Under the pieces are notes generated by a model. The model saw only the letters and a list, made by a program, of their open reading frames with translations. It was not told the origin of the DNA and ran no database searches. This document shows positions 8,321 to 46,871 of a stretch of DNA of 64,000 bases, piece after piece. A program made the translations under genes and the position numbers. Origin of the DNA: an uncultured Alphaproteobacteria bacterium (GTDB taxonomy: Bacteria; Pseudomonadota; Alphaproteobacteria; SHNJ01); NCBI GenBank assembly GCA_964647725.1, contig CAZYJI010000001.1, forward strand, positions 74,264-138,263, in the 5' to 3' direction. The first letter of the stretch is position 1, and each line of letters begins with the position of its first letter.

Positions 8321-8449
8321 ATAATCATTTAAAATCAATAATTTGGTATATTTTGGACGCTGTACGATATCCCTTAAATTTCCTTATTTCCTTTTTAAAG
8401 AAACTTTGTATACTCTTTCGCATAAGCAATGAATAGGGGAGAGAGTAAC

Positions 8450-8983: not shown

Positions 8984-8994
8984 TTGGATTGGAT

Positions 8995-9588: not shown

Positions 9589-9589
9589 A

Positions 9590-9910
9590 TTAGAACGGCA
9601 ATTTCATGCCTGGCGGCAGATTCAATCCGCCGGTGATTTTTCCCATTTCATCGGCCAGGTTTTTTTCAACCTTGGTTTTGGCGTCGGTATAGGCGGCGAC
9701 AACCAAATCCTCGATCATGCCGACATCGCCGGCGGTAACAAGGCTTGGATCGATTTTAATGCGGCGGCATTCCGCCTTGCCGTTCAAAGTTACTTGCACA
9801 ATGCCATTGCCGGATGCGCCTGTTGTTTCCACATCCGCCATCCGGGCTTGCAATTCCTGGATTTTATTTTGCACGGTCTGGGCTTGTTTAATCATTGCGG
9901 CGATGTTCAT
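9590..9910 (-). CDS. ybaB: Nucleoid-associated protein YbaB/EbfC
   Basis: The C-terminal 107 aa of ORF 9590..10150 ([21 protein letters not shown]...[12 protein letters not shown]) match the YbaB family. The ATG overlaps the dnaX stop (ATGA). Confidence 0.85.
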
Positions 9911-31034: not shown

Positions 31035-31667
31035 TTAAACCCGGTCGCTGGAATGATGGGCGAAAAGGGCGTTGGTGTTGATGCCTTGCGCCTCGATCAA
31101 GCCGTTATTGACAACCGTATCGAACGCGAGTTCCGCTGCATGGATTAATCCATCGCGTTTCAATAATTCGGTCAGGCGGTCCATCAAATCATGCAAATGC
31201 AACACGTCGGTGACGGCGTATTTCAATTGCGCCTCGGTCAGTTTTTTCGCGCCCCAATCGGATTTTTGTTTTTCTTTGTTCACTTCGATACCCAAAATAT
31301 CTTTGCAGATATCGTTCAATCCATGGCTGTCGGTAAAACGCCGCGCCAGTTTACTGGCGATTTTGGTATCGAAAATCGGGCCCGTTTCCGCGCCAACATA
31401 ATATTTTAAATAGGCGATGTCGGTTTGCCCGAAATGAAAAATTTTCAGCGTCTTTTTGTCTTGCAGCAATTTTTTCAAATTCGCCGCCGCGTATTTATCC
31501 GCCGTGAATTGCACCAAATGTGCCTTGCCCTTGCGGTCGCGCAATTGCACGAGGCACAACCGGTCGCGGCCGACTTTCAATCCCATCATTTCACAATCGA
31601 CGGCCACAGGGCCTTTGAATTTGACGGTGGATGGCAGGTCGTTTTGGTGCAGGGTGTAATTGGTCAT
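31035..31667 (-). CDS. Short RNase D-like 3'-5' exonuclease (DEDDy family)
   Basis: Exo motif I VAVDCEMMGL, LVQL, and motif III with a Tyr (YAVTDVLHLHDL). Internal start (MTNYTL) of ORF 31035..31703. Confidence 0.75.
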   Translation of the reverse strand: MTNYTLHQNDLPSTVKFKGPVAVDCEMMGLKVGRDRLCLVQLRDRKGKAHLVQFTADKYAAANLKKLLQDKKTLKIFHFGQTDIAYLKYYVGAETGPIFDTKIASKLARRFTDSHGLNDICKDILGIEVNKEKQKSDWGAKKLTEAQLKYAVTDVLHLHDLMDRLTELLKRDGLIHAAELAFDTVVNNGLIEAQGINTNALFAHHSSDRV

Positions 31668-31717
31668 GTGCGCAATGTACGCGATTTTATTGCTCCCACG
31701 CAAGCGGGAATCGGTAT

Positions 31718-31987
31718 TTAGCGCGCAGAACGAGCAGCTTTCCGCCGGGCCAATTCTTCGCGGATAATAGTACTGCCGCTTTCTATGTCGCCATATTCAC
31801 TTGCATCAATTTCCGGATCGGTCGGCGGCGCAACCCGCAAAGTCGCCATCCAAAATCCATTGACGGCCAAACGGCATATTAGGCCGAAACTGCTGCATGC
31901 TTGCACAGTTTCCCGCGCTTGACCCATTTTGTTAGGATCATGCACGACCAAGGATCGTAAAGGTCCAATTCCCATTTTATTCTCCAA
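31718..31987 (-). CDS. Hypothetical protein (89 aa)
   Basis: ORF only. Co-directional with and upstream of the RNase D-like gene. No recognisable motif. Confidence 0.3.
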   Translation of the reverse strand: MENKMGIGPLRSLVVHDPNKMGQARETVQACSSFGLICRLAVNGFWMATLRVAPPTDPEIDASEYGDIESGSTIIREELARRKAARSAR

Positions 31988-32030
31988 CAGTTTTTTTGCG
32001 CCACGCGCGGGCGGGCCTTGCCGTCTTATT

Positions 32031-32051
32031 TGGTGCCGGAAGAGGACTCGA
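32031..32051. repeat. attL-like direct repeat (copy of tRNA-Leu 3' end, 1 indel)
   Basis: Sequence tggtgccggaagaggactcga matches 46718-46740 apart from one missing C. Confidence 0.75.
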
Positions 32052-32324
32052 TTAAGGCGTCTAAACTATTGATATTTATCATGATAATAGTATGATAAAT
32101 ATATAGTACCCCCACCGATACCCCCAGTAACATTAGCTGCCAGTATGGCACCAAGTTCTGGCAAGGCAGTAAACATCATGGGGTTTTGAAAGTCAATTTG
32201 TATCGGCCTTTTTTATTTTATCACCCCACCCCCGTGGCAGGAGGGGGGCGGGCAAAATCACTTTCCTGCCACCGATCTACAAAGCATCCCGCGAGGATTT
32301 TTAAAATTTTAAAATTGGCCTGCG

Positions 32325-32750
32325 ATGGAACAGATGACCGACTTCCCCTACCGTAGATTCGTTCAAATACCGATGCAACTGGTCATGTGCCACGACATGC
32401 ACGGCTCGGCCATGAAAACTTACGGTGCTCTATGCCTATTCGCGAATAAGAAGAACATATGCTGGCCCTCCATCCACACCCTCGCCCGCATCACAGGACT
32501 TTCTAAACGGCAAATAGCACGGCATTTGAAGGCGCTGGAGAAGAAGGAACTCATCATTATAAAACGGCGAGGTAAAAGCAGAGGCAAGCGCGGCGCAACC
32601 AGTGTCTATAAACTGGCTTTTGATTTTCGTGGCTCTTCCTTCATTTGGCAGCAAATTATGGCGGGCAGGCGACATGTATGGCAGGGAGAACCAAAAACAA
32701 ATCGGAAGACATGCGAATCTGAAGAAGGTTTGGGGGTCGTACACCTCTAA
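32325..32750 (+). CDS. Winged-helix HTH_36-like protein (island replication/regulatory protein)
   Basis: Motif ICWPSIHTLARITGLSKRQIARHLKALEKKELIIIKRRGK, the HTH_36 pattern common in integrative elements. Confidence 0.6.
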   Translation: MEQMTDFPYRRFVQIPMQLVMCHDMHGSAMKTYGALCLFANKKNICWPSIHTLARITGLSKRQIARHLKALEKKELIIIKRRGKSRGKRGATSVYKLAFDFRGSSFIWQQIMAGRRHVWQGEPKTNRKTCESEEGLGVVHL

Positions 32751-32893
32751 ATCATTGATTTACCTTGCAACCGTCGCGCGGGGATGAGTGCGCAGATATA
32801 ACAGCCTGTATTTGCCATTTTGTTGCTGTGTCCGCTCTGTACTCTTCCCATGCTCCTCCCATTCTTTCTTAGAAGTTAAGGGGCACAAGTAAA

Positions 32894-33160
32894 TTATTTT
32901 TTCTCAGTCAACGCTAGCAGTTCTTCCAGTTTTTCGGGATAGTCCAGGCCGAGAAAGTGTAGATAATCTAGAAACTCGAGCGCATCCATTCTGCGCTCGA
33001 ATCGCTCTATCTTTGACAATTGCCATTGGCCCAGGCCGGTCTGTTCGGCGATATCATTTTGCTTGATTCCCTGTTTTTTGCGCTCTTCCACCAGCCAATT
33101 GAGCAGGCGGCGGTAGCGCTTATCGTAAATCGTTGCAATCCTTGATTTTGTCTTGGCCAT
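32894..33160 (-). CDS. XRE-family HTH transcriptional regulator (island repressor candidate)
   Basis: HTH region LVEERKKQGIKQNDIAEQTGLGQWQLSKIERFER. Start taken at the internal Met (MAKTKS). Divergent from the lipoprotein operon. Confidence 0.65.
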   Translation of the reverse strand: MAKTKSRIATIYDKRYRRLLNWLVEERKKQGIKQNDIAEQTGLGQWQLSKIERFERRMDALEFLDYLHFLGLDYPEKLEELLALTEKK

Positions 33161-33232
33161 ACCCCTAGGGTTGCATGCCATTATAGCATATGCCAAAATA
33201 GCCAATATTTCACATAAATACGGGGTTAAATT

Positions 33233-33844
33233 ATGATTAGAGCAATAACTTTGGCGGCTATCTTATTATTAAGCGGATGCGTAACCACGCAGCGTTACGC
33301 GCAAAACTACACAACTATTGGCGAAGATCAGCAGGTTTGTGAACAGATTAATAAAGGTTTTCCGGAAATGGTGGATTGCCTCAATGAAAAAGTGACCCTT
33401 AAAGCCACGCAGCGAGGGCCGGATGTTGACTTGCAGCTGGCATATGTCACTAGGGCGCGCGCACTAGCGCAGAAAGTGCGCGACGGAAAGATTAGTGATA
33501 GCACCGCGCGCAAAACATTGGCCAAAGAGAAAGTTATCTTAGACGATCGCCTGGCCGAACGGCAAAATCAATATTATGAATCGCAACGACAAAAAGCGGC
33601 TGCGCCGGTACCAACCAACACTGACAATTTAGCTATTTTAAACTGCATTCAGGCCGCCAATTTAATTCCAAGATCGGGCGTAGGAGGTCCGGCTGCCGCT
33701 ATTGCTTCGTGCCACGAGAATCCTTATCGAGCAGAAGATAGATTTCAGCGGGAAAAAGAAGATATGGATCGCCGAAATCGAAAAATGATATGCAAGCCAG
33801 ATTACGCCGGTAAAGCTTTAGAATGTAGTGAGGAACCATTTTAG
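33233..33844 (+). CDS. Hypothetical Cys-rich lipoprotein
   Basis: Lipobox LLLSGC at residues 12-17 and several paired cysteines in the mature part. First gene of a three-gene + strand module. Confidence 0.55.
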   Translation: MIRAITLAAILLLSGCVTTQRYAQNYTTIGEDQQVCEQINKGFPEMVDCLNEKVTLKATQRGPDVDLQLAYVTRARALAQKVRDGKISDSTARKTLAKEKVILDDRLAERQNQYYESQRQKAAAPVPTNTDNLAILNCIQAANLIPRSGVGGPAAAIASCHENPYRAEDRFQREKEDMDRRNRKMICKPDYAGKALECSEEPF

Positions 33845-33846
33845 CC

Positions 33847-34089
33847 ATGACACGGAATCTAGTTTATGTTCCCGCCTCTTGTTACGATAAGAAAATATCT
33901 GAAAATTTAAAGTTAGCCCTTCTAAATTTGGCAAACCTTAAGCCTGAAGACTTGAAGCGCTTTACTTTCGTGGAAAGAATGATTCTTATCGACGAAGCCT
34001 TCTATGCCCTTAAGAAAGGAGTCTATAATAGGCTCGATGTTCTATCAGATGAAACAAACCAAAAATATGGTGCTCACGCCATTAAATAA
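33847..34089 (+). CDS. Hypothetical protein (80 aa)
   Basis: ORF 3 nt downstream of the lipoprotein gene. No recognisable motif. Confidence 0.4.
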   Translation: MTRNLVYVPASCYDKKISENLKLALLNLANLKPEDLKRFTFVERMILIDEAFYALKKGVYNRLDVLSDETNQKYGAHAIK

Positions 34090-34188
34090 CGTCTTGGATC
34101 AAGCCAACCCTGAACTCCAGAAATGCAATAGTAATGGCGATCTAAAACCATTTCCCTTATACTATTTGAAAATGTGCTTAGGTGAGCA

Positions 34189-35520
34189 ATGGAAACAAAG
34201 AATTCTTCCGCGCATTCTCAATGCCCTTTAGCCGCTGTTGATAAGCGGCTTGAAGATGCCCATCGGCTTTGGCACCAAGCAGAACAATCTTATTTTGATC
34301 CTGAAGCTTTTCGGTTGGCAGCTCAGAACACCATACAGACTCTGCGCACCGTTTCTTTCGTTCTGCAAAATCATAAGCGGACAATACCAGACTTCGATCA
34401 ATGGTATGGCTCGCAACAAGAAAAGATGCGTGCCAATCCGTTACTGCGCTGGATAGTGGAAGCTCGCAATAAAATTGAGAAACAAGGCGATCTTGAATCG
34501 CATAGCTTAGTTCGAGTGGAAACCATCGCCTCATATCTCGATAATGGCCCAAGCATTGAAATTCCCTTTGATCTTTTTTCTCCTTCCACTCCAGCTCTCC
34601 TTCGGGAAAGCATCCCCAAAACTCCATTAGGCGATTACATAGTTAAATATGGGTCTTTGCGCATACAACGGCGGTGGGTTGAAAACAGCTTGCCCGATTA
34701 CGAACTCCTTGACGCATTGGCCATCGCTTATGGTCATATGTCCGAACTAGTTCATGACGCTCATCGTCAAATGAGCCTACCGCCGCCTAGCGTTATTAAC
34801 TGTGACGGCACTAAGGAGTTTACGTCACCCATGTTAAAGGGGAGGATGCCGTGCATGATAGGCCATCATGATCCGCGCTCTCTTATTATTTCACTAAAAG
34901 ACGGTAAAATTTTAGAATTTGAACGCAGAGGAATGATTTCTGATACGAAGATCGCGGAAATCGCTTCTGAACGTTATGAGATTGGTCCCGATAATTTCAA
35001 AAAGAATGTAGCTAACATAGAAGAACTAGCAGCAATGTATTTTCAAATTGCTCGTACGCTATTTCTAAAAGATGGTTATCACATAGATACGCTATTGTTT
35101 ATACGCGACATTAAAGTAATTAGTATGTGCGAAATTAGGATGGATAACTCACGACAGAACTATCATATTATGCGCAAAATGGCGGATGAAGCTACTCGTA
35201 TCGGAGCTGACGCCGCCATAAGAATAAATGAGATATGGGCGGCTCCCGCCAATGAATTGAGCCAGTATCAACGACCAGCTGAATATGTAGGTCGCAAGGA
35301 AGGACTCGCCTTATTTTTGGTAGGGAAAACAGGGCATCCTATTCATTTTTACGCTGACATAACAAGAAAAGAAGGTAAGGCAAGTCTCGGAGATACAGTT
35401 ATTCATCACGGTGGCGCCCCTTTCATTTTTGCACCTTTTTATCAAGCATGGGGACGTACAATACCTACAGAGTGGGAGACTCTTGAGGAAACGATGGAGG
35501 GGCTTAATAAGCAATCGTAA
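34189..35520 (+). CDS. Hypothetical protein (443 aa), uncharacterized island cargo
   Basis: Long ORF with no motif I can recognise. Cytoplasmic, with no TM or signal peptide. Confidence 0.55.
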   Translation: METKNSSAHSQCPLAAVDKRLEDAHRLWHQAEQSYFDPEAFRLAAQNTIQTLRTVSFVLQNHKRTIPDFDQWYGSQQEKMRANPLLRWIVEARNKIEKQGDLESHSLVRVETIASYLDNGPSIEIPFDLFSPSTPALLRESIPKTPLGDYIVKYGSLRIQRRWVENSLPDYELLDALAIAYGHMSELVHDAHRQMSLPPPSVINCDGTKEFTSPMLKGRMPCMIGHHDPRSLIISLKDGKILEFERRGMISDTKIAEIASERYEIGPDNFKKNVANIEELAAMYFQIARTLFLKDGYHIDTLLFIRDIKVISMCEIRMDNSRQNYHIMRKMADEATRIGADAAIRINEIWAAPANELSQYQRPAEYVGRKEGLALFLVGKTGHPIHFYADITRKEGKASLGDTVIHHGGAPFIFAPFYQAWGRTIPTEWETLEETMEGLNKQS

Positions 35521-35530
35521 TAAATTAATT

Positions 35531-35995
35531 TTAGGCCGCTTGCGCCGCTTCAATTTCAGCGAGATCCATTGCGAAATCAAAAACTATCTGGATTGGTTCC
35601 GCTTCCACATGCGCATCGTTGTAGCTGTCCACATCAGTTTTAAGTTGACGACAGTCTCCCACTATCGCTTGCCGTCTTTGCTGAAATGATATTTGCATAT
35701 GGTGTCTGGGAGCTGTGCGAATATCATCCCAAAGCACCATTTGTTCATCACCTTTGCGCGTAGAAGCAGGATGCAAGAGCCTTACACGACGCCCTTTTTT
35801 ATCCGTGATATATTCTTCACGCATAGCTGAAGCTACATCTTCCGCGCATTTGCTTATTGCGGCAGAAGCTGGAAGCTCCCAACGACCAGTGCGAATAGCC
35901 CAGGCCGCAATTGTTTTTGCAGCAGCAGGCCAAGGCTCACCCGAGCCTCTGTAGTCCTCAACAATTTTCTGCATTTGTTTAGTATATGTTGCCAT
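35531..35995 (-). CDS. Hypothetical protein (154 aa), downstream of higA-peptidase fusion
   Basis: ORF 10 nt after the HigA-like gene on the same strand. No motif recognised. Confidence 0.4.
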   Translation of the reverse strand: MATYTKQMQKIVEDYRGSGEPWPAAAKTIAAWAIRTGRWELPASAAISKCAEDVASAMREEYITDKKGRRVRLLHPASTRKGDEQMVLWDDIRTAPRHHMQISFQQRRQAIVGDCRQLKTDVDSYNDAHVEAEPIQIVFDFAMDLAEIEAAQAA

Positions 35996-36005
35996 AAGTG
36001 CTCTC

Positions 36006-37142
36006 CTATATGTTTATTGGTCCTGTGTGGCCATATCCGTCGGTAAGTGCGGACTGAATTATAATATGCCGTACTTTTAATTGATGCCTTCTGAATAAAT
36101 CCCATCGTTCCGTGCGCCTTTGTAACTGGCCAGCTACTATGCCTGGATGACGCTTAATTAGGCGCGCAAATCCAATCAAATTCTTTTCTGAATACATTGG
36201 ATCAAGACGAGCTATGAAATGCTTTATTTCTTTTTCCGGAACACAAAAATTACTAGCCGCTTGATTAGCTGCTTTTTCACAATCATTTGTATTGGAAGCA
36301 GGCTCATTTGCTTCAAACTCATCCACCATAATAGAATCTTTGCCATCCCCTCTAAGTACATGCTCAATCTCATGCCGAAGGGTAAACCAAAACCTATCTA
36401 TATAGTCTCCTTTAAGAGAGAGACCTATTACGGGAGAGTGTGCGTTCAGCCAGAAACACACCCCATCAATCTTTGATCCAGGAATAGGTTCTACTATTAC
36501 AAATCGTACCCCACATTCAGATAAAATCCCAGGAATGTGGCGCGCTTCTTCTGGCTCCGTCATTAGTAATTCAAGATTAACTAAAGCAGAACGCAATTTC
36601 TGTTCATTATATTTAGGAATTTGTAACGCAGTTGCCAAATGTTTTACACGAAAAATCCATGCGAGCTGTGCTGAGGAAAGATTCTCACTATAATTTCTCC
36701 GCGCGGCATGGGATAATTTCGGCATGTCATCTAAGGATGTAATACCAAAGAAATCAAGAACCCTAGTTTCTATTACTTCAAAGTTTTTTGAAGACTCAAT
36801 CCAGCCGCGCTTTATCATTTCTCGAACTGGAAATTTTTCACGAAGTTGGGCTTCTTTCCTAATTCTTTCAGGAACAGGATCGACGCGCGATAGTTGATAT
36901 GCAGATTCAAGATTGAGCCAAAATTCCGCACTAGTGCCAAATGCAGCAGCGATCGCTTGGGCTGTCTCCGGAGTGATGCCGCGCTTACCACTTATAATTT
37001 CGCTAATTAAGCGTGGCGGACGACCGATAATTTCGGCAAATTCTCCCTGATTCCAACCGCGCGCTTCTAGCTCGTCATGAAGATATTCTCCTGGTGGAAA
37101 TATCTCTGCTGGTTTTCTTTGTTTCATGGGTCTGTCTCTCAT
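36006..37142 (-). CDS. higA: HigA-like XRE HTH antitoxin fused to ImmA/IrrE-type (COG2856) zinc metallopeptidase domain
   Basis: N-terminus PGEYLHDELEARGWNQGEFAEIIGRPPRLISEIISGKRGITPETAQAIAAAFGTSAEFWLNLESAY matches the HigA family. The C-terminal domain carries an HEIEH zinc-binding motif. Confidence 0.7.
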   Translation of the reverse strand: MRDRPMKQRKPAEIFPPGEYLHDELEARGWNQGEFAEIIGRPPRLISEIISGKRGITPETAQAIAAAFGTSAEFWLNLESAYQLSRVDPVPERIRKEAQLREKFPVREMIKRGWIESSKNFEVIETRVLDFFGITSLDDMPKLSHAARRNYSENLSSAQLAWIFRVKHLATALQIPKYNEQKLRSALVNLELLMTEPEEARHIPGILSECGVRFVIVEPIPGSKIDGVCFWLNAHSPVIGLSLKGDYIDRFWFTLRHEIEHVLRGDGKDSIMVDEFEANEPASNTNDCEKAANQAASNFCVPEKEIKHFIARLDPMYSEKNLIGFARLIKRHPGIVAGQLQRRTERWDLFRRHQLKVRHIIIQSALTDGYGHTGPINI

Positions 37143-37147
37143 AATAA

Positions 37148-37477
37148 TCAGTGATAATCTGTAATTTCTATAACTCTAATCGTTTTCATCAGGGCGGTTT
37201 CATGCACTTCAATAATCAGCCGCCATTGATCATTTATCCTCAACGAATATTGATGCTTACGATCACCTTGCAATTTTTTAAAACGGAGGCCCCTTAATTG
37301 ATGCAAATCCTTTTCATCAGCAACGGCTCGAATAGCCTGCATGACTTTTCGGAACCCTTTGACTATCGGCTGGGAGAAGCCAGCCGTAAATTTCGGATCG
37401 GTTTCTAGTCGATCTAAATCAGCATCATCAAATTCAACTTCCATTTTCTTTATACCCTGTTTTTTTGGAATTGTCAA
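37148..37477 (-). CDS. higB: HigB-like RelE/ParE-superfamily toxin (plasmid maintenance system killer protein)
   Basis: C-terminal region GDRKHQYSLRINDQWRLIIEVHETALMKTIRVIEITDYH, typical of HigB. It sits upstream of its antitoxin with a 5-nt gap, the reversed TA order that is the HigBA hallmark. Confidence 0.7.
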   Translation of the reverse strand: MTIPKKQGIKKMEVEFDDADLDRLETDPKFTAGFSQPIVKGFRKVMQAIRAVADEKDLHQLRGLRFKKLQGDRKHQYSLRINDQWRLIIEVHETALMKTIRVIEITDYH

Positions 37478-37591
37478 GTACGAAATTACACATAATGTAA
37501 AAATGATATATTGTAAATAAAAATATAATCCATATATAACAATATGTTAATCATGTATTACTGCATAGAGGGGGCAAAAAAGTGGTGAGCT

Positions 37592-38701
37592 TTAAGCTTT
37601 TGGACTTGCCACAATGGTTTTATCGTAGCCAGGGAATTTCTGCTTTAATCTTTCGACTGTCGCCCGCCATTTAGGTTTTGTAGGCTTACACACAGTGTTT
37701 TGATTACCAAAAAAACCTATTTCCTTAATTGCTTTTTCCAAAGACACGGCTTGAATCCATTCGATAGGCACGAAATATTCGCAGCGCTCAGGATCGTCCA
37801 AATATTCACGATGATAGCTGGCTCGTTTTACAACATCTAGCACTGGCATTTTGCCCTGGGAGGTGTCTACTTGGAATGTTGCGGCGGGCTGGACTCGGCC
37901 AATAGCGCGACCGACCCCAACATATCCAGAGCCGGGTATATTCACCCAAACACGGTCGCCGGGGTTAAGCAGTTGTAGGGTTTTGCTATACCATCTACCG
38001 CCCCCGCCACAAATGAATCCATATTGTACAGCATCCGCCCAAGACCGCACCTCACTTTCACCGAACGATGAATAAAATTCACCGTTCCAAGGTTCGCTTT
38101 GGTTATCCGGTGCAGTGGCGGCGCTAATTTGAGTTTGGGCCGGGTCTAACAACCAGGCGCGGCTTAGCAATTGATCGTCACCATAATTAAAAACCTGAAA
38201 GCAAACTACATTGATTGGAATATCGCGCTCGCTAAGATAGGCAATTATGCGTTCACTGCTTTCATCTATAGCCGAAGCAACCACAATAATTTGGTGGCTT
38301 TCGTTTAAAGATTCTTCATCCAATTCCTGGTTAAAACGCTTGTGGAAATCTTCCGCAAGATTGCCGCCTTTAGTAAACCGACTATAAATAGCATTGATAT
38401 TCTCGGGTTTTAATTTAGAAACCCAGCTTGCATAGTCAATCGCCTGCGCAACAACTTCGCGCGGGGTGCGGTCTCTCTTTAATTCTATCAATATCAGCAC
38501 GCCATCCGGCGCAATTGCCAATAAATCGATTCGCCCACCATAACCGGTGTCTTCTTGCCGACCAATAAACATCCAATTTTCGTCTAATATCCTAGGATCA
38601 GCAAGAATCATGTCTTCCAGCAATCTTTCGCTGGGCAGAATCGCCTCGATCAATGGCTGGGGTTGTTGACCAACTTTCCAAATGGCATGACGAATGGGCA
38701 T
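37592..38701 (-). CDS. NucS-like PD-(D/E)xK nuclease domain fused to PUA/EVE-like domain (candidate modification-reading nuclease)
   Basis: N-terminal half GGRIDLLAIAPDGVLILIELKRD is the NucS/RecB-type D...ExK core. C-terminal half GDRVWVNIPGSGYVGVGRAIGRV...YFVPIEWIQAVSLEKAI resembles the EVE/PUA-like fold. Lies 5 nt downstream of the MmeI-like gene. Confidence 0.5.
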   Translation of the reverse strand: MPIRHAIWKVGQQPQPLIEAILPSERLLEDMILADPRILDENWMFIGRQEDTGYGGRIDLLAIAPDGVLILIELKRDRTPREVVAQAIDYASWVSKLKPENINAIYSRFTKGGNLAEDFHKRFNQELDEESLNESHQIIVVASAIDESSERIIAYLSERDIPINVVCFQVFNYGDDQLLSRAWLLDPAQTQISAATAPDNQSEPWNGEFYSSFGESEVRSWADAVQYGFICGGGGRWYSKTLQLLNPGDRVWVNIPGSGYVGVGRAIGRVQPAATFQVDTSQGKMPVLDVVKRASYHREYLDDPERCEYFVPIEWIQAVSLEKAIKEIGFFGNQNTVCKPTKPKWRATVERLKQKFPGYDKTIVASPKA

Positions 38702-38706
38702 GAGTT

Positions 38707-41700
38707 TTAGCCCGCTGCTTCTGGCAAGAAACTAATTTTATCTATTTCTTGCATAGTTTTTGCGGTTTCGGCTAGCGCCACAATTATGCGCTGCCAATGA
38801 CGAATGTCTTCAATAGTCAATTTTCGGTCTTTTCGGTCTTTCAGCCATTTTTGTGCAGGCTGATAACCGCCAATATAAAAATCCCAGGCTTCTTGTGGCA
38901 CATTGCCAAAGTATTGAGAGTCATTAATCCATACTTTGCCTTTTTCAAAACGTTGTTTTTTAACTTCATGCAGCCCATCAACCGGATATGTGGTAATTTG
39001 AGTATCCAATCTTGGACTTTCCATTAAATGCAACTCACGCAAATAAGCGCCTTTCTCTGCTAATCCATGAAAAATCTTAGTGTTCGTTGGGTAAGGAATA
39101 TAAGGAAAGTCTGACTTCAAAAACTCAGCATAGCGCTTACGATAGGTGGGGCTGTGGAGTACTGCATAGACATAATCAAACAAAGCCTCTGGCGTGGTGT
39201 CAGGAACTGTTTTCTTGATTTGGCCGAAGATTTTAGGATCGAGATTGGGTCTTCTTTGTTCTTTGCTTTGAAGCCCTTCCCCATAAAGCCAAAGGGGATA
39301 ATATAAACAAATACCTTTATTGCTGATGAAGGTACGGTTATCAATTAGTTCTCTACTAACAAAGCTATAACAATAATCCGGCACATTGTAGGCATAGTGT
39401 CTCATACTCAACAAACCGAGATTCTCTCCCGCACAAAAGTGGCGCATGACTTCTGGTCTAGGCATACATAGGAAACCACGAGATTGCCCCGTGTAATAAG
39501 TCCAGCGCGTATCGAAAGGTCGATAGCTAATAGCTCTGATATTATCAGGATTTAAGCCAGTATTCTTCAAATCATTCTGCGCCCACTCCACCCGCCAATC
39601 TCGCACATCCTTACCCAAATTGTATTCTTGGCGCGCATCTTCTATTGGCAGCATGCTAAAATTTTGAATGGTACGGATAAGATCATCGCGCTTTTCATGA
39701 ATAGTCAATTCATCCCGCGCCGTAACGATACCAACGGAATTGATGGGGAACAAAACATTCAAGGCAAAGCCTTTGTGATATTCAGCGCCTGATTTGTTAT
39801 CTTGGGGAATAAAAAAATAAAACGGCGCACGTAGAACCAGTTGTTTAAATGGCAGTTTGTTAATGCTGCCTATTTGTAGTGCATCATATTTGTTTTCGCG
39901 GCTGCCCCATAAATCGGCATGAAAAACCCTAGCTAGTTGCTTTTGTGTTTTTCCAGTTGGTTTGGCCTTAACCGCGATAATTATTGCTACTCCTTGTTGA
40001 ATATCAAACACATTCTTATCAGGCTTGCCATCAGGGGATGTTTCTTTTTGCTTTGCATTACCGTGTAAATCCAGAACATAGATATCATCAAAAGTGTTCA
40101 GTAAATGCCAGCGCATACCACGAAAAGTAGGATTATTTAGATATCCATGATTGGTTATATAAGCCAAAATTCCTTCCGCATTTTTTTGTATATAATGCTC
40201 TCCGAGACGTATGAATTTTACATAATCATCATTTAGCCATTTGGAGTTTCTTTCTTTAAGCTTGCCCCCGCTAGGCTCCTGTTTATATGCATTCATCAAG
40301 CCCATAATCCAATCACCCTTATTGGCACTTTCGCCACTATAGGGAGGGTTGCCGATAGCCACCATAATAGGCATATCTTTTTTGATGCGGCTGGCTTCGT
40401 TAGCTTCCCGGGATAGCCAGTTGGCAAACAAGGTATCAACATCAGGGTGGTACTCTTCAAGACTGTTCGTTAGATAAACACTTAAGCGCGGAGGATTATT
40501 GGCGTTAGATGGCTTGTAACCGGTTTCCTGTAGCAATAGATCTAGCTTCATATGACACATAGCATAAGAAGCCATTAACAATTCAAACCCGTGCATGCGC
40601 GGCAACAAATCGCGCTCAATATAGCTGCTCCATAAACCCTCTTGTCCTTGGAATTTTTTATAAATTTGTTTAATGATTTCGGCTAGGAAAGTGCCGGTGC
40701 CTGTGGCTACGTCCAGAAGCTGAACTTTATGTACTTCACGCACTTCCATTTTGCGACCAGTTTTAGTTCGTTGATCTTTTTCTTGTGATTCTATTTCAAT
40801 ACTAACTTTACTGGTATCAGCCAGCCCGTCTTTAAGATTAAAATGTTTTTTCAACACATCATCAACGGCACGAACAATAAAATTCACTACTGGTTCCGGC
40901 GTGTACCATACCCCCCGCGCCTTACGGAGGGACTTATCGTATTCCGCGAGAAAAGTTTCATAAAAATGAAGGATGGGGTCGTTCTGTCCCGTGGCTGTCC
41001 CGAAATCATGCAGGATAGATGGAAGATCGGTATAGCGATACACCTCGCACAGTGCGTCGATAATCCAAATAACGCGATCATCTAATTCAGGGCCGGCTAT
41101 ATAATGAAATAATTGTCTTAGAAATGGATTGCTTTTAGGGATTAAGGTCAAGGCCTCTGCGCGGGAAAAATCATGTAAGCTTTTATCATGTAAACGTGCA
41201 GTAAATAAACCATAAGTGATCGTTTGGGCATAGACATCTGCAAATTGTTTCGCATCCATGTCATGAACTAGTACTTTCTGAAATGCCGTTAATTGATCAT
41301 GTAGGGAGGTGTTCTCATTGCTTTCCAAAAGAGCTTTATGAAATACATCACGCATTAGGCGCGCTTTACGCGCCATCATCTCGGCCAATTTTTTAGCCGA
41401 TTTAATCGTTTGGCCTTGGAAAGCAGCAAAATCAATCAAGTGGTCTTTGAGACGATTATAATTTTCAGGTATCGAATTAATTTTCCCAGACGGGCCTATT
41501 TCGCCTATCCGGATCGTTTCAACTTTTTTGCCGTGCAAGAAAAATCGAAATTCAAGATAGTCCGTTAGAATCAAATTATCTAAGCTATCAAAATAACGCT
41601 TTAGTTGATCGTCTTTCTCGGCTTTATCTAGATTGATCCCTATATCTTTAGCCTCGATATAACCAACATCAATTTTACGTCGGGTCAAAATAAAATCAGG

Positions 41701-41856
41701 CGCGCCGCATTCGATACGTTTAGGATCATTTGTCGCCATAACATCCGGCATAATAGCTTCGACAAGGATTTGTAATGCTGGACGGTAAGCATGCTCCCCC
41801 GCTATGCCGGAAGCGTGGCGCTTTTTAAGATCGTCAACATATATATTGAAGGGCAT
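38707..41856 (-). CDS. MmeI-family type IIL (type IIG) restriction-modification enzyme, single-chain endonuclease + N6-adenine MTase + TRD
   Basis: 1049 aa. N-terminal PD-ExK motif (APDFILTRRKIDVGYIEAKDIGINLDKA...YF) parallels the MmeI D70/E80/K82 region. MTase motif I is LLDVATGTGTFL and motif IV is NPPYSG. The long C-terminal region is consistent with a TRD. Confidence 0.72.
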   Translation of the reverse strand: MPFNIYVDDLKKRHASGIAGEHAYRPALQILVEAIMPDVMATNDPKRIECGAPDFILTRRKIDVGYIEAKDIGINLDKAEKDDQLKRYFDSLDNLILTDYLEFRFFLHGKKVETIRIGEIGPSGKINSIPENYNRLKDHLIDFAAFQGQTIKSAKKLAEMMARKARLMRDVFHKALLESNENTSLHDQLTAFQKVLVHDMDAKQFADVYAQTITYGLFTARLHDKSLHDFSRAEALTLIPKSNPFLRQLFHYIAGPELDDRVIWIIDALCEVYRYTDLPSILHDFGTATGQNDPILHFYETFLAEYDKSLRKARGVWYTPEPVVNFIVRAVDDVLKKHFNLKDGLADTSKVSIEIESQEKDQRTKTGRKMEVREVHKVQLLDVATGTGTFLAEIIKQIYKKFQGQEGLWSSYIERDLLPRMHGFELLMASYAMCHMKLDLLLQETGYKPSNANNPPRLSVYLTNSLEEYHPDVDTLFANWLSREANEASRIKKDMPIMVAIGNPPYSGESANKGDWIMGLMNAYKQEPSGGKLKERNSKWLNDDYVKFIRLGEHYIQKNAEGILAYITNHGYLNNPTFRGMRWHLLNTFDDIYVLDLHGNAKQKETSPDGKPDKNVFDIQQGVAIIIAVKAKPTGKTQKQLARVFHADLWGSRENKYDALQIGSINKLPFKQLVLRAPFYFFIPQDNKSGAEYHKGFALNVLFPINSVGIVTARDELTIHEKRDDLIRTIQNFSMLPIEDARQEYNLGKDVRDWRVEWAQNDLKNTGLNPDNIRAISYRPFDTRWTYYTGQSRGFLCMPRPEVMRHFCAGENLGLLSMRHYAYNVPDYCYSFVSRELIDNRTFISNKGICLYYPLWLYGEGLQSKEQRRPNLDPKIFGQIKKTVPDTTPEALFDYVYAVLHSPTYRKRYAEFLKSDFPYIPYPTNTKIFHGLAEKGAYLRELHLMESPRLDTQITTYPVDGLHEVKKQRFEKGKVWINDSQYFGNVPQEAWDFYIGGYQPAQKWLKDRKDRKLTIEDIRHWQRIIVALAETAKTMQEIDKISFLPEAAG

Positions 41857-42022
41857 TATATCTGTGCCATGAGGTTATAATTTGTCAGAAACAATAATAC
41901 TCACGACAATTAATCGCAACAATAATTAACGTAATATTGGCTTCAATAATGTAATTAAGCTTCTGCCTGAAGATCATTACGTTCATTGCTCGGTGGGCAC
42001 AATTTCTATTGCCGATAGATAG

Positions 42023-44128
42023 TTAATTCTTTTCTTTCTGGGCTTCGCTTTCTGCAACTGAACGTTTTTGTTCCCCACAAAACTCACGAATGGCAGCGCG
42101 TTCTTCATATTCGTATAATGATCCATTGCTGGATTTAGCCGCCACAGCGCCACATGCAAGGTTCTCAAAGCTTTCTTGTGTTGCGGGGGCAGTCATTTGA
42201 GATTTATTGGGGACAGTTTCCGCCACGTCCCATTCGTCAGAAAGCGTAGGTTGTGGCGTTGTGGCGGCTGGAGCCTGCCCTCCCTCTAAATAACGCGCAA
42301 AAGCATCTGAGAATTGTGAAATCTCATATCCTTTAGGAGTGTTATAACTATCCAGTCTGACGGTCTTACTTTTAATCCCAAATGGCTTTAATATCATAGC
42401 TACATGGTTCGGGGTTATTGGCTTGTCACGCTTCCAACTCACCCATGGGCGTTCTTCATCTCTGCATAGAAAATCAATCAGAGAGACGGTTGAAATTTTA
42501 TCTCCCAGAACTTCAAAAGCAGCCTTGATGTCCCGAAGCATTTCTGTACCTACACTGGTGACATCTGGCCCTTCTTTTGACAAAGCAATAGCCGCATCAA
42601 AAGCTTTCTTTTGCCACCGGCTTCCTGCCAGAAACGCAATTGCAAGTAAAGGTTCCCAATTATCCGCACCACGGTCTGATAAACTATCTGGTAAAACCGG
42701 TTTGAGTGATGAAAGTGCCTGAATACTATCATCCGCCAGCCTTTTTAGTTGCGATCTAAACTTCTCAAATGAATCTTGGTTTACATCGCGTAATTTCTGC
42801 ACTTTTTCCGATTTTAATTTGCGGCGTAACTCAATGATAATTGACCGGTCACGTAGCGTATCATAAAGATCCCCGATTAAAGCAATAACCTTTGCTCCCC
42901 AAGTACTGAATTTTTTGGGTTCATGCTCATCCCCGACTGAACGAATGACAAAAGCAGTGGTGCGCGTATGCCCAGAATTAATAATGCCACGCAATTCATC
43001 TTTGCCTGCCAGAAAAGTATCAGCTTCGTCTATTAAAAGAGTAGGTTTACATAATTCAATTGTGCGAAACATTGCTGCGGGAGTTATATTAGCGGCAGGA
43101 AGCGGCTTGTTTACTAACCCATTAATTGCGGAAATTAAAGAAGTTTTTCCACACCTTTTTTCTGGGGAGCAGATAGCCAAAATTGGCGCAGTATGAAAAG
43201 CATCAATTACCCAAGTAAACAACACCCATAAAGTTACCGCAGTTTTGCTGTGTTTTGAAAGTATAACAAGAGAATCTATTATTGTAGCTATCTCATCAAA
43301 TAGCGCTGCGGCATCAACAGGTTCTGGCCATGGCTCTATTTCGGGAAAATCAAAGCCGCCTCTATTATGCTGACTTTGGGGAAATATGCGTTGCTCTTTG
43401 ACTTCTTGATCTAAGACAGATCTTCGTATTCCCAAACTAGCAGCATGTCGTGTTCTGACCCGGTCATATTCGATAGGTGATAAAGCGGCCAACTGACGTA
43501 CAATATTGGCTAGATTAATTTCTTCATTGTTAGCAAGTGTCGATATTAAGGGCGCATTTTCAACCCAATCCAAAAGATTTTTTTCCTGAAACTCAAATGG
43601 AAGTAAGTCAGCTAAGTCCCATTTCGGAGGCAAGCCTTCAGGCAACTGAACGATTCTAATTGATTTAGCCCCAATTGTGGCAAGTTGGTTGACTATAATT
43701 GAAGCATATTTTTTCCCTGCTTCATCGTTATCGGGCCAAACGACGGTGTCTCGCCCAGCTAAAGTTGACCAGTCAGTTTTATGCGCAGCTTGAGAGCCGA
43801 AGCTACTTGTTACAATAACACAGTGAGGAAAAAATCTTCTGGCTGCTTCTGCCGCTTTCTCACCTTCCACAATAATTACTAGCGCATCGTGTTTTTCAAT
43901 AATTTCAAGCAGATTATACAGCGGGCGCAATTCTGGAGCTTTAATTATCCAACGGCCATCTAGGAATGACCATGGCCTAAATTCTTTCTCTTCTTTGCCG
44001 CTAGTATTAACCTTGTTATAGCGCGTCACTACAAACGATAACTCGCCTCTTGCATCAAAATATTCCCATGCGCCAGCAAACTCTCCAATTTTAGGCTGCT
44101 GAAGCAGCTTTGAATAATCTTTTGTCAT
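42023..44128 (-). CDS. TOPRIM primase / P-loop NTPase (P4-alpha-like, DUF3987-type) replication protein
   Basis: TOPRIM acidic motifs (IIVEGEKAAEAA, VVWPDNDEAG) in the N-terminal 150 aa. Walker A (PEKRCGKTSLISAI) and Walker B-like LLIDEADTF in the central domain. Confidence 0.7.
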   Translation of the reverse strand: MTKDYSKLLQQPKIGEFAGAWEYFDARGELSFVVTRYNKVNTSGKEEKEFRPWSFLDGRWIIKAPELRPLYNLLEIIEKHDALVIIVEGEKAAEAARRFFPHCVIVTSSFGSQAAHKTDWSTLAGRDTVVWPDNDEAGKKYASIIVNQLATIGAKSIRIVQLPEGLPPKWDLADLLPFEFQEKNLLDWVENAPLISTLANNEEINLANIVRQLAALSPIEYDRVRTRHAASLGIRRSVLDQEVKEQRIFPQSQHNRGGFDFPEIEPWPEPVDAAALFDEIATIIDSLVILSKHSKTAVTLWVLFTWVIDAFHTAPILAICSPEKRCGKTSLISAINGLVNKPLPAANITPAAMFRTIELCKPTLLIDEADTFLAGKDELRGIINSGHTRTTAFVIRSVGDEHEPKKFSTWGAKVIALIGDLYDTLRDRSIIIELRRKLKSEKVQKLRDVNQDSFEKFRSQLKRLADDSIQALSSLKPVLPDSLSDRGADNWEPLLAIAFLAGSRWQKKAFDAAIALSKEGPDVTSVGTEMLRDIKAAFEVLGDKISTVSLIDFLCRDEERPWVSWKRDKPITPNHVAMILKPFGIKSKTVRLDSYNTPKGYEISQFSDAFARYLEGGQAPAATTPQPTLSDEWDVAETVPNKSQMTAPATQESFENLACGAVAAKSSNGSLYEYEERAAIREFCGEQKRSVAESEAQKEKN

Positions 44129-44355
44129 TTTCTTGCTCCCGGGTCGTTAATTAAGCCCAGTTTCTGTAAGGATATTTTTACTTCAACTTGCGAACAACCA
44201 GCAAAACAATGCCAAAGCAGTTTCCCATTTTTTTCCGCGATAGACAAAGAAGGGGATCTATCATTATGAGCGGGGCAACAAGCTTTGCCACGCTTGCCAT
44301 CCCATTGGCCTTTTAGTTTAAGAGTTACTTCTTCTGCGCTATATTTTTTACACAT
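44125..44355 (-). CDS. CHC2-type zinc-finger protein (primase zinc-binding domain, separate ORF)
   Basis: Motif CPAHNDRSPSLSI...WHCFAGC matches the DnaG-type CHC2 zinc ribbon. The stop overlaps the TOPRIM gene start (ATGA). Confidence 0.6.
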   Translation of the reverse strand: MCKKYSAEEVTLKLKGQWDGKRGKACCPAHNDRSPSLSIAEKNGKLLWHCFAGCSQVEVKISLQKLGLINDPGARK

Positions 44356-44401
44356 GATAATCCTTCATGTCGCTGTGCACTGCAACGCTATCGGCATTTC
44401 T

Positions 44402-44620
44402 TTATTGATTGCTGACAGCAACAGAATTTAGGAATTTCTGGATATCAGATACGCGCCACGCAGTAATGCGTTCGCTTAGCTTGACAGGTTTTGGGTATCG
44501 GCCGGTTTTTATGCCTTCCCAGAAGGTCGATTTGCTAACCGGTATAAGCTTTAAAACGTCCGGCAGCCTTAAATAGCCGTCATTATCAAGGGTATTATTG
44601 GTTTTCATAGGTTGCTCCAT
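44402..44620 (-). CDS. alpA: AlpA-family phage regulatory protein / excisionase-like DNA-binding protein
   Basis: Motif YLRLPDVLKLIPVSKSTFWEGIKTGRYPKPVKLSERITAWRVSDIQKFL matches the AlpA/prophage CP4-57 regulatory family. Confidence 0.75.
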   Translation of the reverse strand: MEQPMKTNNTLDNDGYLRLPDVLKLIPVSKSTFWEGIKTGRYPKPVKLSERITAWRVSDIQKFLNSVAVSNQ

Positions 44621-44703
44621 CCAGTTGAATCTGGTTGGATTCTATGAGAGCCGTGATAGGCCCTGGGCGAATTCGCCTAAATAAAAAGCGAATTCGCCTT
44701 TTA

Positions 44704-45345
44704 TTATTCTTTGGATTCTTCTGCTATATACTCCACTGACGCATCAGCATGTTTTCTTATAGTTCCATCATCCATGGAAAACCCACAGGCTTGAATACGG
44801 TTACTTATTTTCCCTACAGCCTCTCTGCTCGGATAACCATAATGGCTTTTCAAAATACAGCCCAAAATTTTCATAAGCGATTTATTTTCTTTAGCCAAAG
44901 AGGCTTGATTTACGATTTTTTGTAATTGCTCTTTAAGCTTTTCATTCTCTTCCATTAAAACATTGCATTGGGCTTTGTAATCTACAGCGGATAATTTCTT
45001 CTTTTCATATGCGGCCATCAATGCTTTCGGAGGCGCGATGCCCCTCTGTATTAGCCAGTCAACAAATTTTATGGCTGAAACAAGCCCTATTTGCTCCTTG
45101 AAAATATTATCTCCAGACCTTTCCATAACCCTCAAGAGTTTTTGTGAGTAACTAGGAAGCTGGCTAGGATAATTAATCACCTTAGTGCCATAAGGATTTA
45201 GATTTATATTATCTTCATCTGGATTATGCCCATATGCCAATAACGCTGCTTCGGAAAGACTCCAATAATCCGAGGCCATCCAATCTTCGTAATTTATGTT
45301 ATGATGAAAAGTATCCAATACTTTAGTTTCGTCAAATTTAGGCAT
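44704..45345 (-). CDS. Hypothetical coiled-coil protein (213 aa)
   Basis: ORF between alpA and int with a central coiled-coil (QCNVLMEENEKLKEQLQKIVNQ). Confidence 0.45.
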   Translation of the reverse strand: MPKFDETKVLDTFHHNINYEDWMASDYWSLSEAALLAYGHNPDEDNINLNPYGTKVINYPSQLPSYSQKLLRVMERSGDNIFKEQIGLVSAIKFVDWLIQRGIAPPKALMAAYEKKKLSAVDYKAQCNVLMEENEKLKEQLQKIVNQASLAKENKSLMKILGCILKSHYGYPSREAVGKISNRIQACGFSMDDGTIRKHADASVEYIAEESKE

Positions 45346-45346
45346 T

Positions 45347-46570
45347 TTATGAGACCCTTTTTCTATTCTTAAATGCTACTACGCGGCCAGTATCAGCAAT
45401 AACCGAATCAACATAATCCGCCCATTGCTGCATCATCTTCTTCCGCTCTGGCAAATATTCAGCGCGGTTATACGCGGCGCGGACACTATTGCGCTCTTTA
45501 TGCGCTAGCTGCCGCTCTATTACATCCGGTTTAAAGCCAAGTTCATTCAATGTGGTAGAAGCAAGCGCGCGGAATCCATGGCCCACCAGCTTTCCTTTAT
45601 AGCCCATCCTTTGCAGCACTTGATTAATTGCGTTTTCGCTTATCATTGGATTTTTTCGCCGTTGGTAAGATGGAAGCAGCAGCTCAGAGCGTCCCGTTAA
45701 TTTTCTCAATTGTTGCAAGAGTTTTATGACTTGTTTGGAAAGCGGTACGATGTGCTCTCTGCGCATTTTTGTGGCATGAGCTGGCATAATCCAGACATTG
45801 TCTTTGAAATCAAAATCCGTCCATTTAGCGTGGCGCAGTTCGCCCTGCCGAACAAATGTAAAAAGCAGAATTTTAATAGCCAGCCGGATTTCTTCTGCCG
45901 TGCCTACAGTTTCCAGCTTGTGCCAGAGTTGAGGGATTTCTTTCGCATTGATGGTTGGATAATGACTCGCCTTATGAGCTTTAAGCGCTCCCCGCAAGTC
46001 AGCCGCAGGATTATATTCGGTGCGACCGGTTGCGGTAGCATATCGAAAAATAACCGAACAGGTCTGCAACACACGATGCGATAACTCTGTTGCATCCCGT
46101 TTTTCTACCTTCCGTATAACGTCCAGTAATTCGACAGGTTTAATGTTTTTGACCGGCACATGGCCAAGAAAGGGAAATATATTGGCTTCTAAGCGCCTCA
46201 AAATCTTGGCGCTATGCGCTTTTGTCCATTGGACTTGATTGGCTGCATGCCACTCCAAGGCAATAGCTTTAAAGCTATTATTGGCGTCAAATTGCGCCAT
46301 ACGCTTATCTTCGCGCCGTTTTAGGCTTGGATCAATTCCATTAGCTAGCTGTTTCCGCACTTCCAGGCGCTTTTCCCGCGCTTCGGATAGGCTAACTTCG
46401 GGATAGGCCCCAAAGGTCAAAAGCTTCTCTTTACGATGGTAGCGGTACTTAAAGCGCCAGATTTTCGAGCCTTTAGGGGTCACATAGAGAAATAACCCTT
46501 CTCCATCCGCAATCTTTTGGGGTTTGGCTGTCGGCTTGACATTACGAATTTTGGTGTCGGTGAGGGCCAT
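45347..46570 (-). CDS. int: P4-type tyrosine integrase (DUF4102 N-terminal + phage_integrase catalytic domain)
   Basis: N-terminus LTDTKIRNVKPTAKPQKIADGEGLFLYVTPKGSKIWRFKYRYHRKEKLLTFGAYPEVSLSEAREKR is the DUF4102 arm-binding domain. The C-terminus has the R...HxxR...Y catalytic pattern (HGFRALASTT...RAAYNRAEY). Confidence 0.88.
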   Translation of the reverse strand: MALTDTKIRNVKPTAKPQKIADGEGLFLYVTPKGSKIWRFKYRYHRKEKLLTFGAYPEVSLSEAREKRLEVRKQLANGIDPSLKRREDKRMAQFDANNSFKAIALEWHAANQVQWTKAHSAKILRRLEANIFPFLGHVPVKNIKPVELLDVIRKVEKRDATELSHRVLQTCSVIFRYATATGRTEYNPAADLRGALKAHKASHYPTINAKEIPQLWHKLETVGTAEEIRLAIKILLFTFVRQGELRHAKWTDFDFKDNVWIMPAHATKMRREHIVPLSKQVIKLLQQLRKLTGRSELLLPSYQRRKNPMISENAINQVLQRMGYKGKLVGHGFRALASTTLNELGFKPDVIERQLAHKERNSVRAAYNRAEYLPERKKMMQQWADYVDSVIADTGRVVAFKNRKRVS

Positions 46571-46717
46571 AAGGATATCCGTTTATACCCCCAACGATAC
46601 CCCCAAATGTGCCGGATGTCAACCGACCCCCTCGGACATCAGCGGACGTAAAAACCTTATTTTATCTATGTTAAAATGATTCTGTCGGATGTCATCGGAC
46701 ATCCTCGGAGGGAGTAA

Positions 46718-46804
46718 TGGTGCCCGGAAGAGGACTCGAACCTCCAAGATGTTACTCACTGGTACCTGAAACCAGCGCGTCTACCAATTCCGCCATCCGG
46801 GCGC
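46718..46804 (-). tRNA. tRNA-Leu (anticodon CAG)
   Basis: Minus-strand read: GCGCCCGGAUGGCGGAAUUGGUAGACGCGCUGGUUUCAGGUACCAGUGAGUAACAUCUUGGAGGUUCGAGUCCUCUUCCGGGCACCA. It has a 7-bp acceptor stem, an anticodon loop UUCAGGU (CAG), a long variable arm, GGUUCGAGUCC in the T-loop and an encoded CCA. Confidence 0.85.
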
Positions 46805-46871
46805 GGCCTGGAAAGTCAGCGATTTTGGCCGATAAGTCAATAGGAATATGGATTATCACGGCGGACAGAAG

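Follow-up and report, generated by a model that had tools for sequence, protein, structure and literature searches.

Results

One module or two units

Do four closely packed genes at one end of an integrative island form a single system, or do they only adjoin one another? The question is raised by a 64,000-nucleotide stretch of contig CAZYJI010000001.1 (GenBank assembly GCA_964647725.1, positions 74,264 to 138,263; the whole stretch is called the window below) from an uncultured Alphaproteobacteria bacterium, in which a gene for an XRE-family regulator is transcribed divergently from three plus-strand genes, encoding a lipoprotein, an 80-amino-acid (aa) open reading frame (ORF) product and a 443-aa protein. 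The original prediction had read the three plus-strand genes as an uncharacterised three-gene module. We propose instead that they belong to two independent, adjacent units at the distal end of a tRNA-Leu island: Unit 1 (32894-34089), a cassette of regulator, lipoprotein and truncated membrane-protein partner, and Unit 2 (34189-35520), a single gene of the phage lambda Ea47 family. The structural claims, namely the two units, the family assignments and the truncated partner, are put forward with considerable confidence, while the account as a whole, with the functions proposed in the Discussion, is moderately probable.

All four ORFs lie where they had been placed, and their coordinates were confirmed on the sequence. 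The regulator gene (32894-33160, minus strand) and the lipoprotein gene (33233-33844, plus strand) diverge across 72 bp (33161-33232), as predicted; the 80-aa ORF (33847-34089, plus strand) starts two bases past the lipoprotein stop codon, and the 443-aa gene (34189-35520, plus strand) comes next. The tight packing of the plus-strand genes was thus correctly described, with the gaps now read as 2 nt and 99 bp, not 3 nt and 100 bp. Comparison with relatives gave pN (proportion of nonsynonymous differences) and pS (proportion of synonymous differences) values of 0.043 and 0.593 for the regulator gene, about 0.2 and about 0.75 for the lipoprotein gene, and 0.119 and 0.584 for the 80-aa ORF (against its relative in locus L007, described below). 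The substitution patterns indicate that all four ORFs are real coding genes under purifying selection in relatives. Local scans with Pfam, NCBIfam and PADLOC returned nothing for the lipoprotein, the 80-aa ORF and the 443-aa protein, and not one PADLOC-DB v2.0.0 family matched any of the three at E ≤ 1.

The 443-aa protein and the lambda Ea47 family

The 443-aa protein had been described as having no recognisable domain and no nameable family. Both statements fall, as it carries PF26900 (Phage_lambda_Ea47), an annotation precomputed on an identical database protein (P0001) and on all 120 homologs listed; the local Pfam copy gave no match. A search of a large protein database gave 432 homologs. 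The protein also matches phrog_19262 of PHROGs (E = 3e-43), and tblastn against phage genomes retrieved lambda (NC_001416) ea47 and its close relatives, with 33.1% identity over residues 18-354 (E = 6e-39). A global alignment including lambda, Proteobacteria, Verrucomicrobia, Actinobacteria and Chloroflexi contains 34 invariant columns, centred on the motif (A/S)RNxIEKxGDLE at residues 92-103 of the window protein. Homology thus places the protein in the lambda Ea47 family as a diverged member; the family is described and functionally uncharacterised.

An AlphaFold2 model of the 443-aa protein, built with 26 sequences (mean predicted local distance difference test score 81, predicted template modelling score 0.71), comprises an N-terminal four-helix bundle (approximately residues 15-99), a middle α/β region and a C-terminal α/β domain. 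In the model and alignment, the N-terminal bundle bears most of the invariant polar residues and the RNxIEKxGDLE motif. A Foldseek search of the PDB with the full model yielded no match at E < 1e-3 and only weak GAF/NTF2-like noise; residues 100-443 found no fold analogue there, and a profile of the family had no match among PDB sequences at E ≤ 10. Most of the protein thus lacks a solved structural analogue. One homolog (P0060, 520 aa) bears an N-terminal SEC-C extension (PF02810); a SEC-C motif is also present in a 260-aa protein in locus L006, adjacent to its cyclic oligonucleotide-based anti-phage signalling system (CBASS).

The regulator-lipoprotein cassette occurs without Ea47

The genes of Unit 1 recur in three other integrative islands, represented by loci L005/L061, L006 and L007/L008, none of which contains an Ea47-family gene. 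L006 is an island of the family to which that in the window belongs (integrase 87%, a 213-aa gene 70% and XRE 92% identical); in it, the XRE gene is divergent from a gene for a 197-aa lipoprotein, followed by a 203-aa protein and then by the CBASS cargo. The integrase of L005/L061 is only 21% identical, yet the same HTH_36 gene, XRE gene and lipoprotein gene are present, followed by a 270-aa protein. L007/L008 have a third integrase type and a non-homologous XRE; their lipoprotein, of 295 aa with a duplicated domain, is followed by two overlapping ORFs, a membrane ORF of 137 aa and then one of 100 aa. The order of regulator, lipoprotein and membrane protein is kept across the three integrase types (87%, 21% and 24% identity to the window integrase), and persists in L007 despite the non-homologous XRE. 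From these comparisons, the recurrent unit consists of a regulator, a lipoprotein and a membrane protein, of which the window holds a version without the membrane part.

A metagenome scan for the lipoprotein yielded a single locus, L061; its matches are identical to those of L005 in identity and length, so that both appear to represent one element. In L005 (approximately 7999-10652; also in L061) a segment is inverted relative to L006, from the 5' end of the XRE gene to the C-terminal half of the 260-aa SEC-C gene. The inversion spans the lipoprotein and membrane-protein genes and splits both the XRE gene and the CBASS-adjacent SEC-C gene, and a tRNA-Arg(CCG) lies within the rearranged region at 9830-9906. 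The inversion could be real or a metagenome misassembly.

Ea47 genes occur without the cassette

The converse survey covered 52 genomic Ea47 loci and 22 viral contigs. Searching the 52 genomic loci by tblastn with the window lipoprotein and 80-aa ORF revealed no relative of either, and the 22 viral loci likewise lack the cassette; the window XRE gave one unrelated match in the genomic loci. When ORFs up to 4 kb from the Ea47 gene were clustered all against all in 45 loci, no family was present in more than five of them; in 12 diverged phage loci, too, no conserved partner was found. Phage homologs with 40-62% identity lie after tail genes, beside HNH genes or an integrase, and none has an Ea59/Ea31 pair.

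When 139 immediate neighbours of Ea47 genes were scanned with Pfam and PADLOC, a mixture of mobile-element, defence and ordinary metabolic genes was found. The defence genes comprise LmuB in three loci and PglW, MkoA, PD-T4-6 and mad6 in two each, with HNH, PLD, Hypoth_Ymh and an ABC-3C component also counted as defence; the mobile-element genes include integrases and a TrwC relaxase. On this evidence, the Ea47 family is a solo, mobile gene.

Two candidate partners were set aside. In lambda itself (L063, NC_001416; locus coordinates 428-2892), Ea59 matches Septu PtuA (E = 5e-184) and PDC-M01A, and Ea31 matches PDC-M01B (HNH), so that the b region beside ea47 is predicted to encode a Septu-like pair; the linkage is found in lambda itself only, not with the diverged phage homologs. 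In locus L057, an Ea47 homolog is cut off after approximately 54 residues and followed by transposase-like ORFs (5968-7136). About 2 kb downstream (8360-9205), an XRE gene whose product is 41% identical to that of the window precedes a gene for a 178-aa protein with an RNxxxH (HEPN-like) motif; this XRE is paired with a different gene, and its proximity to the Ea47 homolog was judged coincidental.

The two units are therefore treated as independent, because the other cassette loci lack Ea47, the other Ea47 loci lack the cassette and no neighbour family of Ea47 recurs in more than five of the 45 loci. The three-gene module is contradicted from both directions: L005, L006 and L007 carry the cassette and no Ea47 gene, and the 52 genomic Ea47 loci carry no homolog of the lipoprotein or the 80-aa ORF. 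The co-occurrence data largely refute the three-gene view.

The lipoprotein

The product of 33233-33844 (203 aa) has the lipobox LLLSGC, and the description of it as a lipoprotein with multiple cysteines is borne out: besides Cys-16 there are six further cysteines, as three pairs kept in relatives. The signal peptide, MIRAITLAAILLLSGC, has a hydrophobic h-region and L-S-G-C16, conserved in all four relatives. It conforms to the bacterial lipobox pattern [LVI][ASTVI][GAS]C, and the protein is predicted to be lipidated.

Relatives are few. Two other homologs were found in 5.8 billion clusters, and a profile search of 1.84 billion representatives gave three strong relatives and approximately 60 weak clusters of small lipoproteins that share the N-terminal domain; no relative was found in IMG/VR viral contigs or in plasmids, and against PDB sequences the profile gave only a chance match (E = 0.19). 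The protein matches phrog_6067 (E = 8.7e-7), with residues 29-119 aligned to positions 18-104 of a 161-position profile only; for comparison, gp14 of phage Brookers scores 4e-53 and small lipoproteins score 2e-19 to 3e-14. The window lipoprotein would thus be a distant relative of phrog_6067, through the N-terminal domain only. The phrog_6067 family is itself functionally uncharacterised. In the P22-like Proteus phage Brookers, the gene for its member gp14 comes after a repressor gene of the Arc family; the pair lies between the tailspike and ejection-protein genes, a slot that we take to be the one in which P22 keeps its immI and sieA accessory genes. Locus L062 likewise contains an Arc-lipoprotein gene pair. 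Homology of the mature lipoprotein to Cor/Llp was not found: the match to phrog_1119 (Cor; E = 0.19) covers residues 4-32, which are the signal peptide, and a second Cor-model match (E = 0.0025) is also confined to it.

The 80-aa ORF as the tail of a membrane protein

The product of 33847-34089 had been taken for an independent novel gene product. Alignments identify it instead as the C-terminal, cytoplasmic domain of a multi-pass membrane protein whose membrane part is missing: it aligns to the C-terminal ~70 residues of the 203-aa protein of L006 and the 270-aa protein of L005, and to the 100-aa ORF of L007. The longer partners (203-270 aa) have three to four hydrophobic segments upstream of this domain, and no transmembrane segment was found in the 80-aa ORF. 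A database search yielded one other homolog. The window copy lost the membrane part and kept the cytoplasmic tail, which is under purifying selection. It is closest to the split form in L007 (74% identity). In L007 (7297-7981), the 137-aa membrane ORF and the 100-aa C-terminal ORF lie in different frames and share 32 nt; the arrangement may be genuine, or may stem from a frameshift or an error in sequencing. A match of the 80-aa ORF alone to Pyrin (death-fold; E = 0.025) was dismissed as chance, since it was lost with a four-sequence profile.

The XRE regulator and its control region

The regulator (32894-33160, minus strand; 88 aa from the ATG) contains a Cro/C1-type helix-turn-helix (HTH), with matches to HTH_3 (E = 8.1e-7; 29.4 bits against a cutoff of 23; residues 25-73) and HTH_19 (E = 7e-7). 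It is 92% identical in L006 and 91% in L005, and is probably the repressor of the cassette.

Within the intergenic region, 48 bp (33163-33210) are 100% identical between the window, L005 and L006, while 59-79% of synonymous sites differ in the flanking genes. This core contains tandem ATGCCAWWATAGC repeats at 33175-33187 and 33190-33202 together with an overlapping palindrome. A TGnTATAAT extended -10 element, read by eye from the sequence, lies upstream of the XRE start on the minus strand. The core shows the pattern expected of an operator and divergent promoters bound by the adjacent regulator, and we infer such binding. The L007 intergenic sequence differs and has its own TGTAGG repeats, matching the different, non-homologous regulator of that locus. 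The only promoter-like match near the lipoprotein start overlaps the ATG and is probably spurious.

The island and its other cargo

The original prediction had located the genes in the variable part of a P4-like island, and this setting is confirmed. A 16-nt perfect direct repeat, CCGGAAGAGGACTCGA, is present at 32036-32051, the distal att repeat and end of the island, and at 46724-46739, inside a tRNA-Leu(CAG) gene (46718-46802), and the two copies bound an element of approximately 14.7 kb. From the tRNA end, the order is a P4-type integrase gene, a conserved 213-aa gene, an AlpA-like gene and a primase gene (zinc-finger/Toprim/DUF3631), then minus-strand cargo consisting of a Type IIG/ISP restriction-modification (R-M) enzyme, a PDC-S11 candidate and an operon of HigB-like, HTH-M78 and 154-aa genes. 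The genes studied here sit between this defence cargo and the distal att repeat; the predicted defence neighbours are also present. The tRNA was the sole match in an Rfam scan of 31500-47000. Housekeeping proteins of the host cluster, at 90% identity or above, with proteins of metagenome-assembled genomes labelled as uncultured alphaproteobacterium.

Beside the cassette lies an HTH_36 winged-helix gene (32325-32750, plus strand; 141 aa; Pfam HTH_36 E = 7.7e-15), which also matches PHROG replication-initiator N-domains and, with a 78% identical copy in L005/L061, belongs to the island backbone. The 213-aa gene (44704-45345, minus strand) comes immediately after the integrase gene and matched nothing in Pfam or PADLOC; since the 70% identical gene of L006 has the same position, it seems to belong to the conserved backbone of the island family, as an uncharacterised member.

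On the other side, a convergent PD-lambda-2-like operon (35531-37477, minus strand) lies outside both units, with 10 bp between its last stop codon and that of the Ea47-family gene. It comprises a HigB-like toxin gene (37148-37477; Pfam HigB-like_toxin E = 2e-9), a gene with HTH_3 and Peptidase_M78 domains (36006-37142; PD-Lambda-2_B of PADLOC, E = 1.7e-46) and, after it, a third gene of 154 aa (35531-35995), all on the minus strand; the first and third proteins matched no PADLOC model. PD-lambda-2 was published as a three-gene operon of a HigB-like gene, an HTH-peptidase fusion and a third gene (PMC9519451), an architecture that the window operon appears to share. Farther along the minus strand (37592-41856), profile matches identify the PDC-S11 candidate (369 aa; E = 6.6e-157), with a weak NucS_C-like N-terminus, directly downstream of the gene for the Type IIG/ISP R-M enzyme (1049 aa; Type_ISP_C E = 6e-86).

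Discussion

Proposed functions

The functional proposals for the two units are both tentative, each being given somewhat less than an even chance. Unit 1 would be a regulator-controlled envelope cassette, consisting of the XRE repressor, the 48-bp operator/promoter region, a periplasm-facing lipoprotein and a partner gene. The intact partner would cross the inner membrane several times and end in a helical tail in the cytoplasm, and the window encodes the 80-aa tail alone. Such a cassette might be a "moron", either constitutively repressed or autoregulated, that serves the element at the cell envelope; superinfection exclusion or modification of the envelope would be its most plausible roles.

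Unit 2 would be single-gene cargo that travels alone, by way of prophages, islands and plasmids, and that frequently settles next to defence systems. Its product could be a self-contained conflict protein, acting in phage defence or, as lambda suggests, in counter-defence, with the conserved bundle as the active or binding site and the C-terminal domains serving in sensing or partner binding. Genomic association is all that points to the anti-phage role.

Several observations weigh against these proposals or against the separation of the units. For Unit 1, the exclusion role is a working model drawn by analogy of architecture only, since the Cor-model matches cover just the signal peptide; the cassette is rare, its four independent loci giving thin co-occurrence statistics; and the window copy may no longer work, because the membrane part is missing. 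The 99-bp spacer before the Ea47 gene has no predicted terminator and folds no better than shuffled sequences (z = -0.18), and because of this the gene might be co-transcribed with the cassette in the window. For Unit 2, the association with defence loci is loose, the neighbour counts are raw counts given without a background rate, and many of the neighbours are ordinary metabolic genes. Neither the window protein nor lambda Ea47 matched a PADLOC model. In the literature retrieved for "ea47", part of it as titles and abstracts, lambda ea47 figures only as a dispensable gene or insertion site. The lambda gene is expressed from pL early in the lytic cycle, which fits counter-defence or host takeover better than prophage-encoded defence.

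Alternative explanations

That last point leads to the alternative that survives best, in which the Ea47-family protein is not a host defence but a counter-defence or host-takeover factor, used by mobile elements in their active (lytic or transfer) phase. The lambda gene lies in the b region, downstream of int-xis, and its early lytic expression agrees with this, as do its dispensability for plaques on laboratory hosts and the accessory slot after tail genes occupied by the phage copies; anti-defence genes, moreover, also cluster with defence genes on mobile elements. However, most homologs are chromosomal with no recognisable prophage genes adjacent, the remaining cargo of the window island is defence and not anti-defence, and no similarity to known anti-defence proteins was found in the libraries searched. 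We regard this explanation as possible but doubtful.

A further alternative concerns Unit 1, whose cassette could control the life cycle of the island, for example with the XRE as master repressor and the cytoplasmic tail as a signal-responsive anti-repressor. This would account for the position of the cassette, always at the island end opposite the integrase in all three integrase types, for the extreme conservation of the operator region, and for purifying selection on a free cytoplasmic tail even when it is split from, or lacks, the membrane part. The transcript divergent from the XRE gene, however, would cover only the lipoprotein and membrane genes before meeting convergent cargo; it does not reach the replication and excision genes, which have their own AlpA-like regulator, and the distant phage repressor-plus-lipoprotein pairs have no such known role. 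Life-cycle control is therefore unlikely, and an envelope role remains the preferred reading of Unit 1.

For Unit 2, it was also considered whether the N-terminal domain of Ea47 is a HEPN-type RNase, the protein then being an abortive-infection toxin that cleaves RNA on phage sensing. As in HEPN toxins, the model shows a four-helix up-down bundle of similar size, and a conserved Arg-Asn opens a strongly conserved polar motif. Unlike in HEPN toxins, the catalytic His is missing: the invariant motif is R93-N94-x-I96-E97-K98-x-G-D-L-E, with no conserved His 5-7 residues past R93, and H105 is variable. Pfam, NCBIfam and PADLOC gave no HEPN match, and bundles of a generic kind reach equally good scores. 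Since its motif has no Rx4-6H histidine, the family was not filed as HEPN; membership is not supported, and this explanation seems quite improbable.

Finally, it is highly improbable that the lipoprotein, the 80-aa and the 443-aa proteins form one co-transcribed three-gene anti-phage system under the divergent XRE, a view suggested by their shared strand, by gaps of 2 nt and then 99 bp lacking a predicted terminator and by their place in the island cargo region beside known defence systems, but opposed by the separate occurrence of cassette (three other loci) and Ea47 gene (52 genomic and 22 viral loci), by the 80-aa ORF being part of a truncated membrane protein and by the solo habit of the Ea47 family wherever it was examined.

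Implications

With two independent units as the preferred reading, the annotation of the locus changes. Its largest gene is no orphan, and a classic lambda gene is tied to hundreds of homologs in Alphaproteobacteria and other phyla; as these are often found beside defence systems, lambda genetics could be used to approach the function of the whole family. Tight same-strand spacing inside a defence island is insufficient for calling a multi-gene system: once related loci are compared, what looks like one operon separates into a recurrent cassette of regulator and lipoprotein and a solo cargo gene unrelated to it. The 48-bp core, invariant beside saturated synonymous sites, is a ready candidate operator.

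Going further, we suggest, as a speculation that may well prove wrong, that PF26900 represents an immune or counter-immune module, made of a single protein, that has so far gone unrecognised and, separately, that the XRE-lipoprotein-membrane cassette is a new portable exclusion device carried by integrative islands. The Ea47 family is found in phages, islands and plasmids and in at least five phyla. To our knowledge, lambda ea47 has been an orphan of the b region since the early lambda protein work, and an immune or counter-immune role for PF26900 would, if true, give it a function.

Comparison with known systems

Mobile elements carry several exclusion pairs, among them the phage Cor/Llp lipoproteins, the Sie/Imm membrane proteins and TraT/TraS of the F plasmid. 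Unit 1 resembles these in that an element-encoded lipoprotein adjoins a small multi-pass membrane protein; no sign of relatedness to them was found in sequence or fold, and the window copy has no membrane segments.

The window lipoprotein shares with phrog_6067 the lipobox, the N-terminal C-x12-C motif (CE..F..MV.CL) with the helical region after it, and the C-terminal Cys pair; in both cases, moreover, the gene adjoins that of a small repressor and occupies an accessory slot in a temperate element. Unlike phrog_6067, it adds a Cys-containing C-terminal region common to just three relatives, its regulator is a divergent XRE and not a co-directional Arc, and it is paired with a membrane-protein gene.

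Compared with lambda Ea47, the 443-aa protein falls in a proteobacterial subfamily (~50% mutual identity) with N-terminal CPL and RLPCMIGH motifs that are absent from lambda, and its carrier is an integrative island of an uncultured alphaproteobacterium, not the b region of a phage. The two proteins are nonetheless homologous over nearly their full length, with the alignment reaching the C-terminus, and share the invariant RNxIEKxGDLE motif and approximately 30 further invariant residues. Both are encoded by solo genes that lack a fixed partner and lie in the accessory regions of mobile elements.

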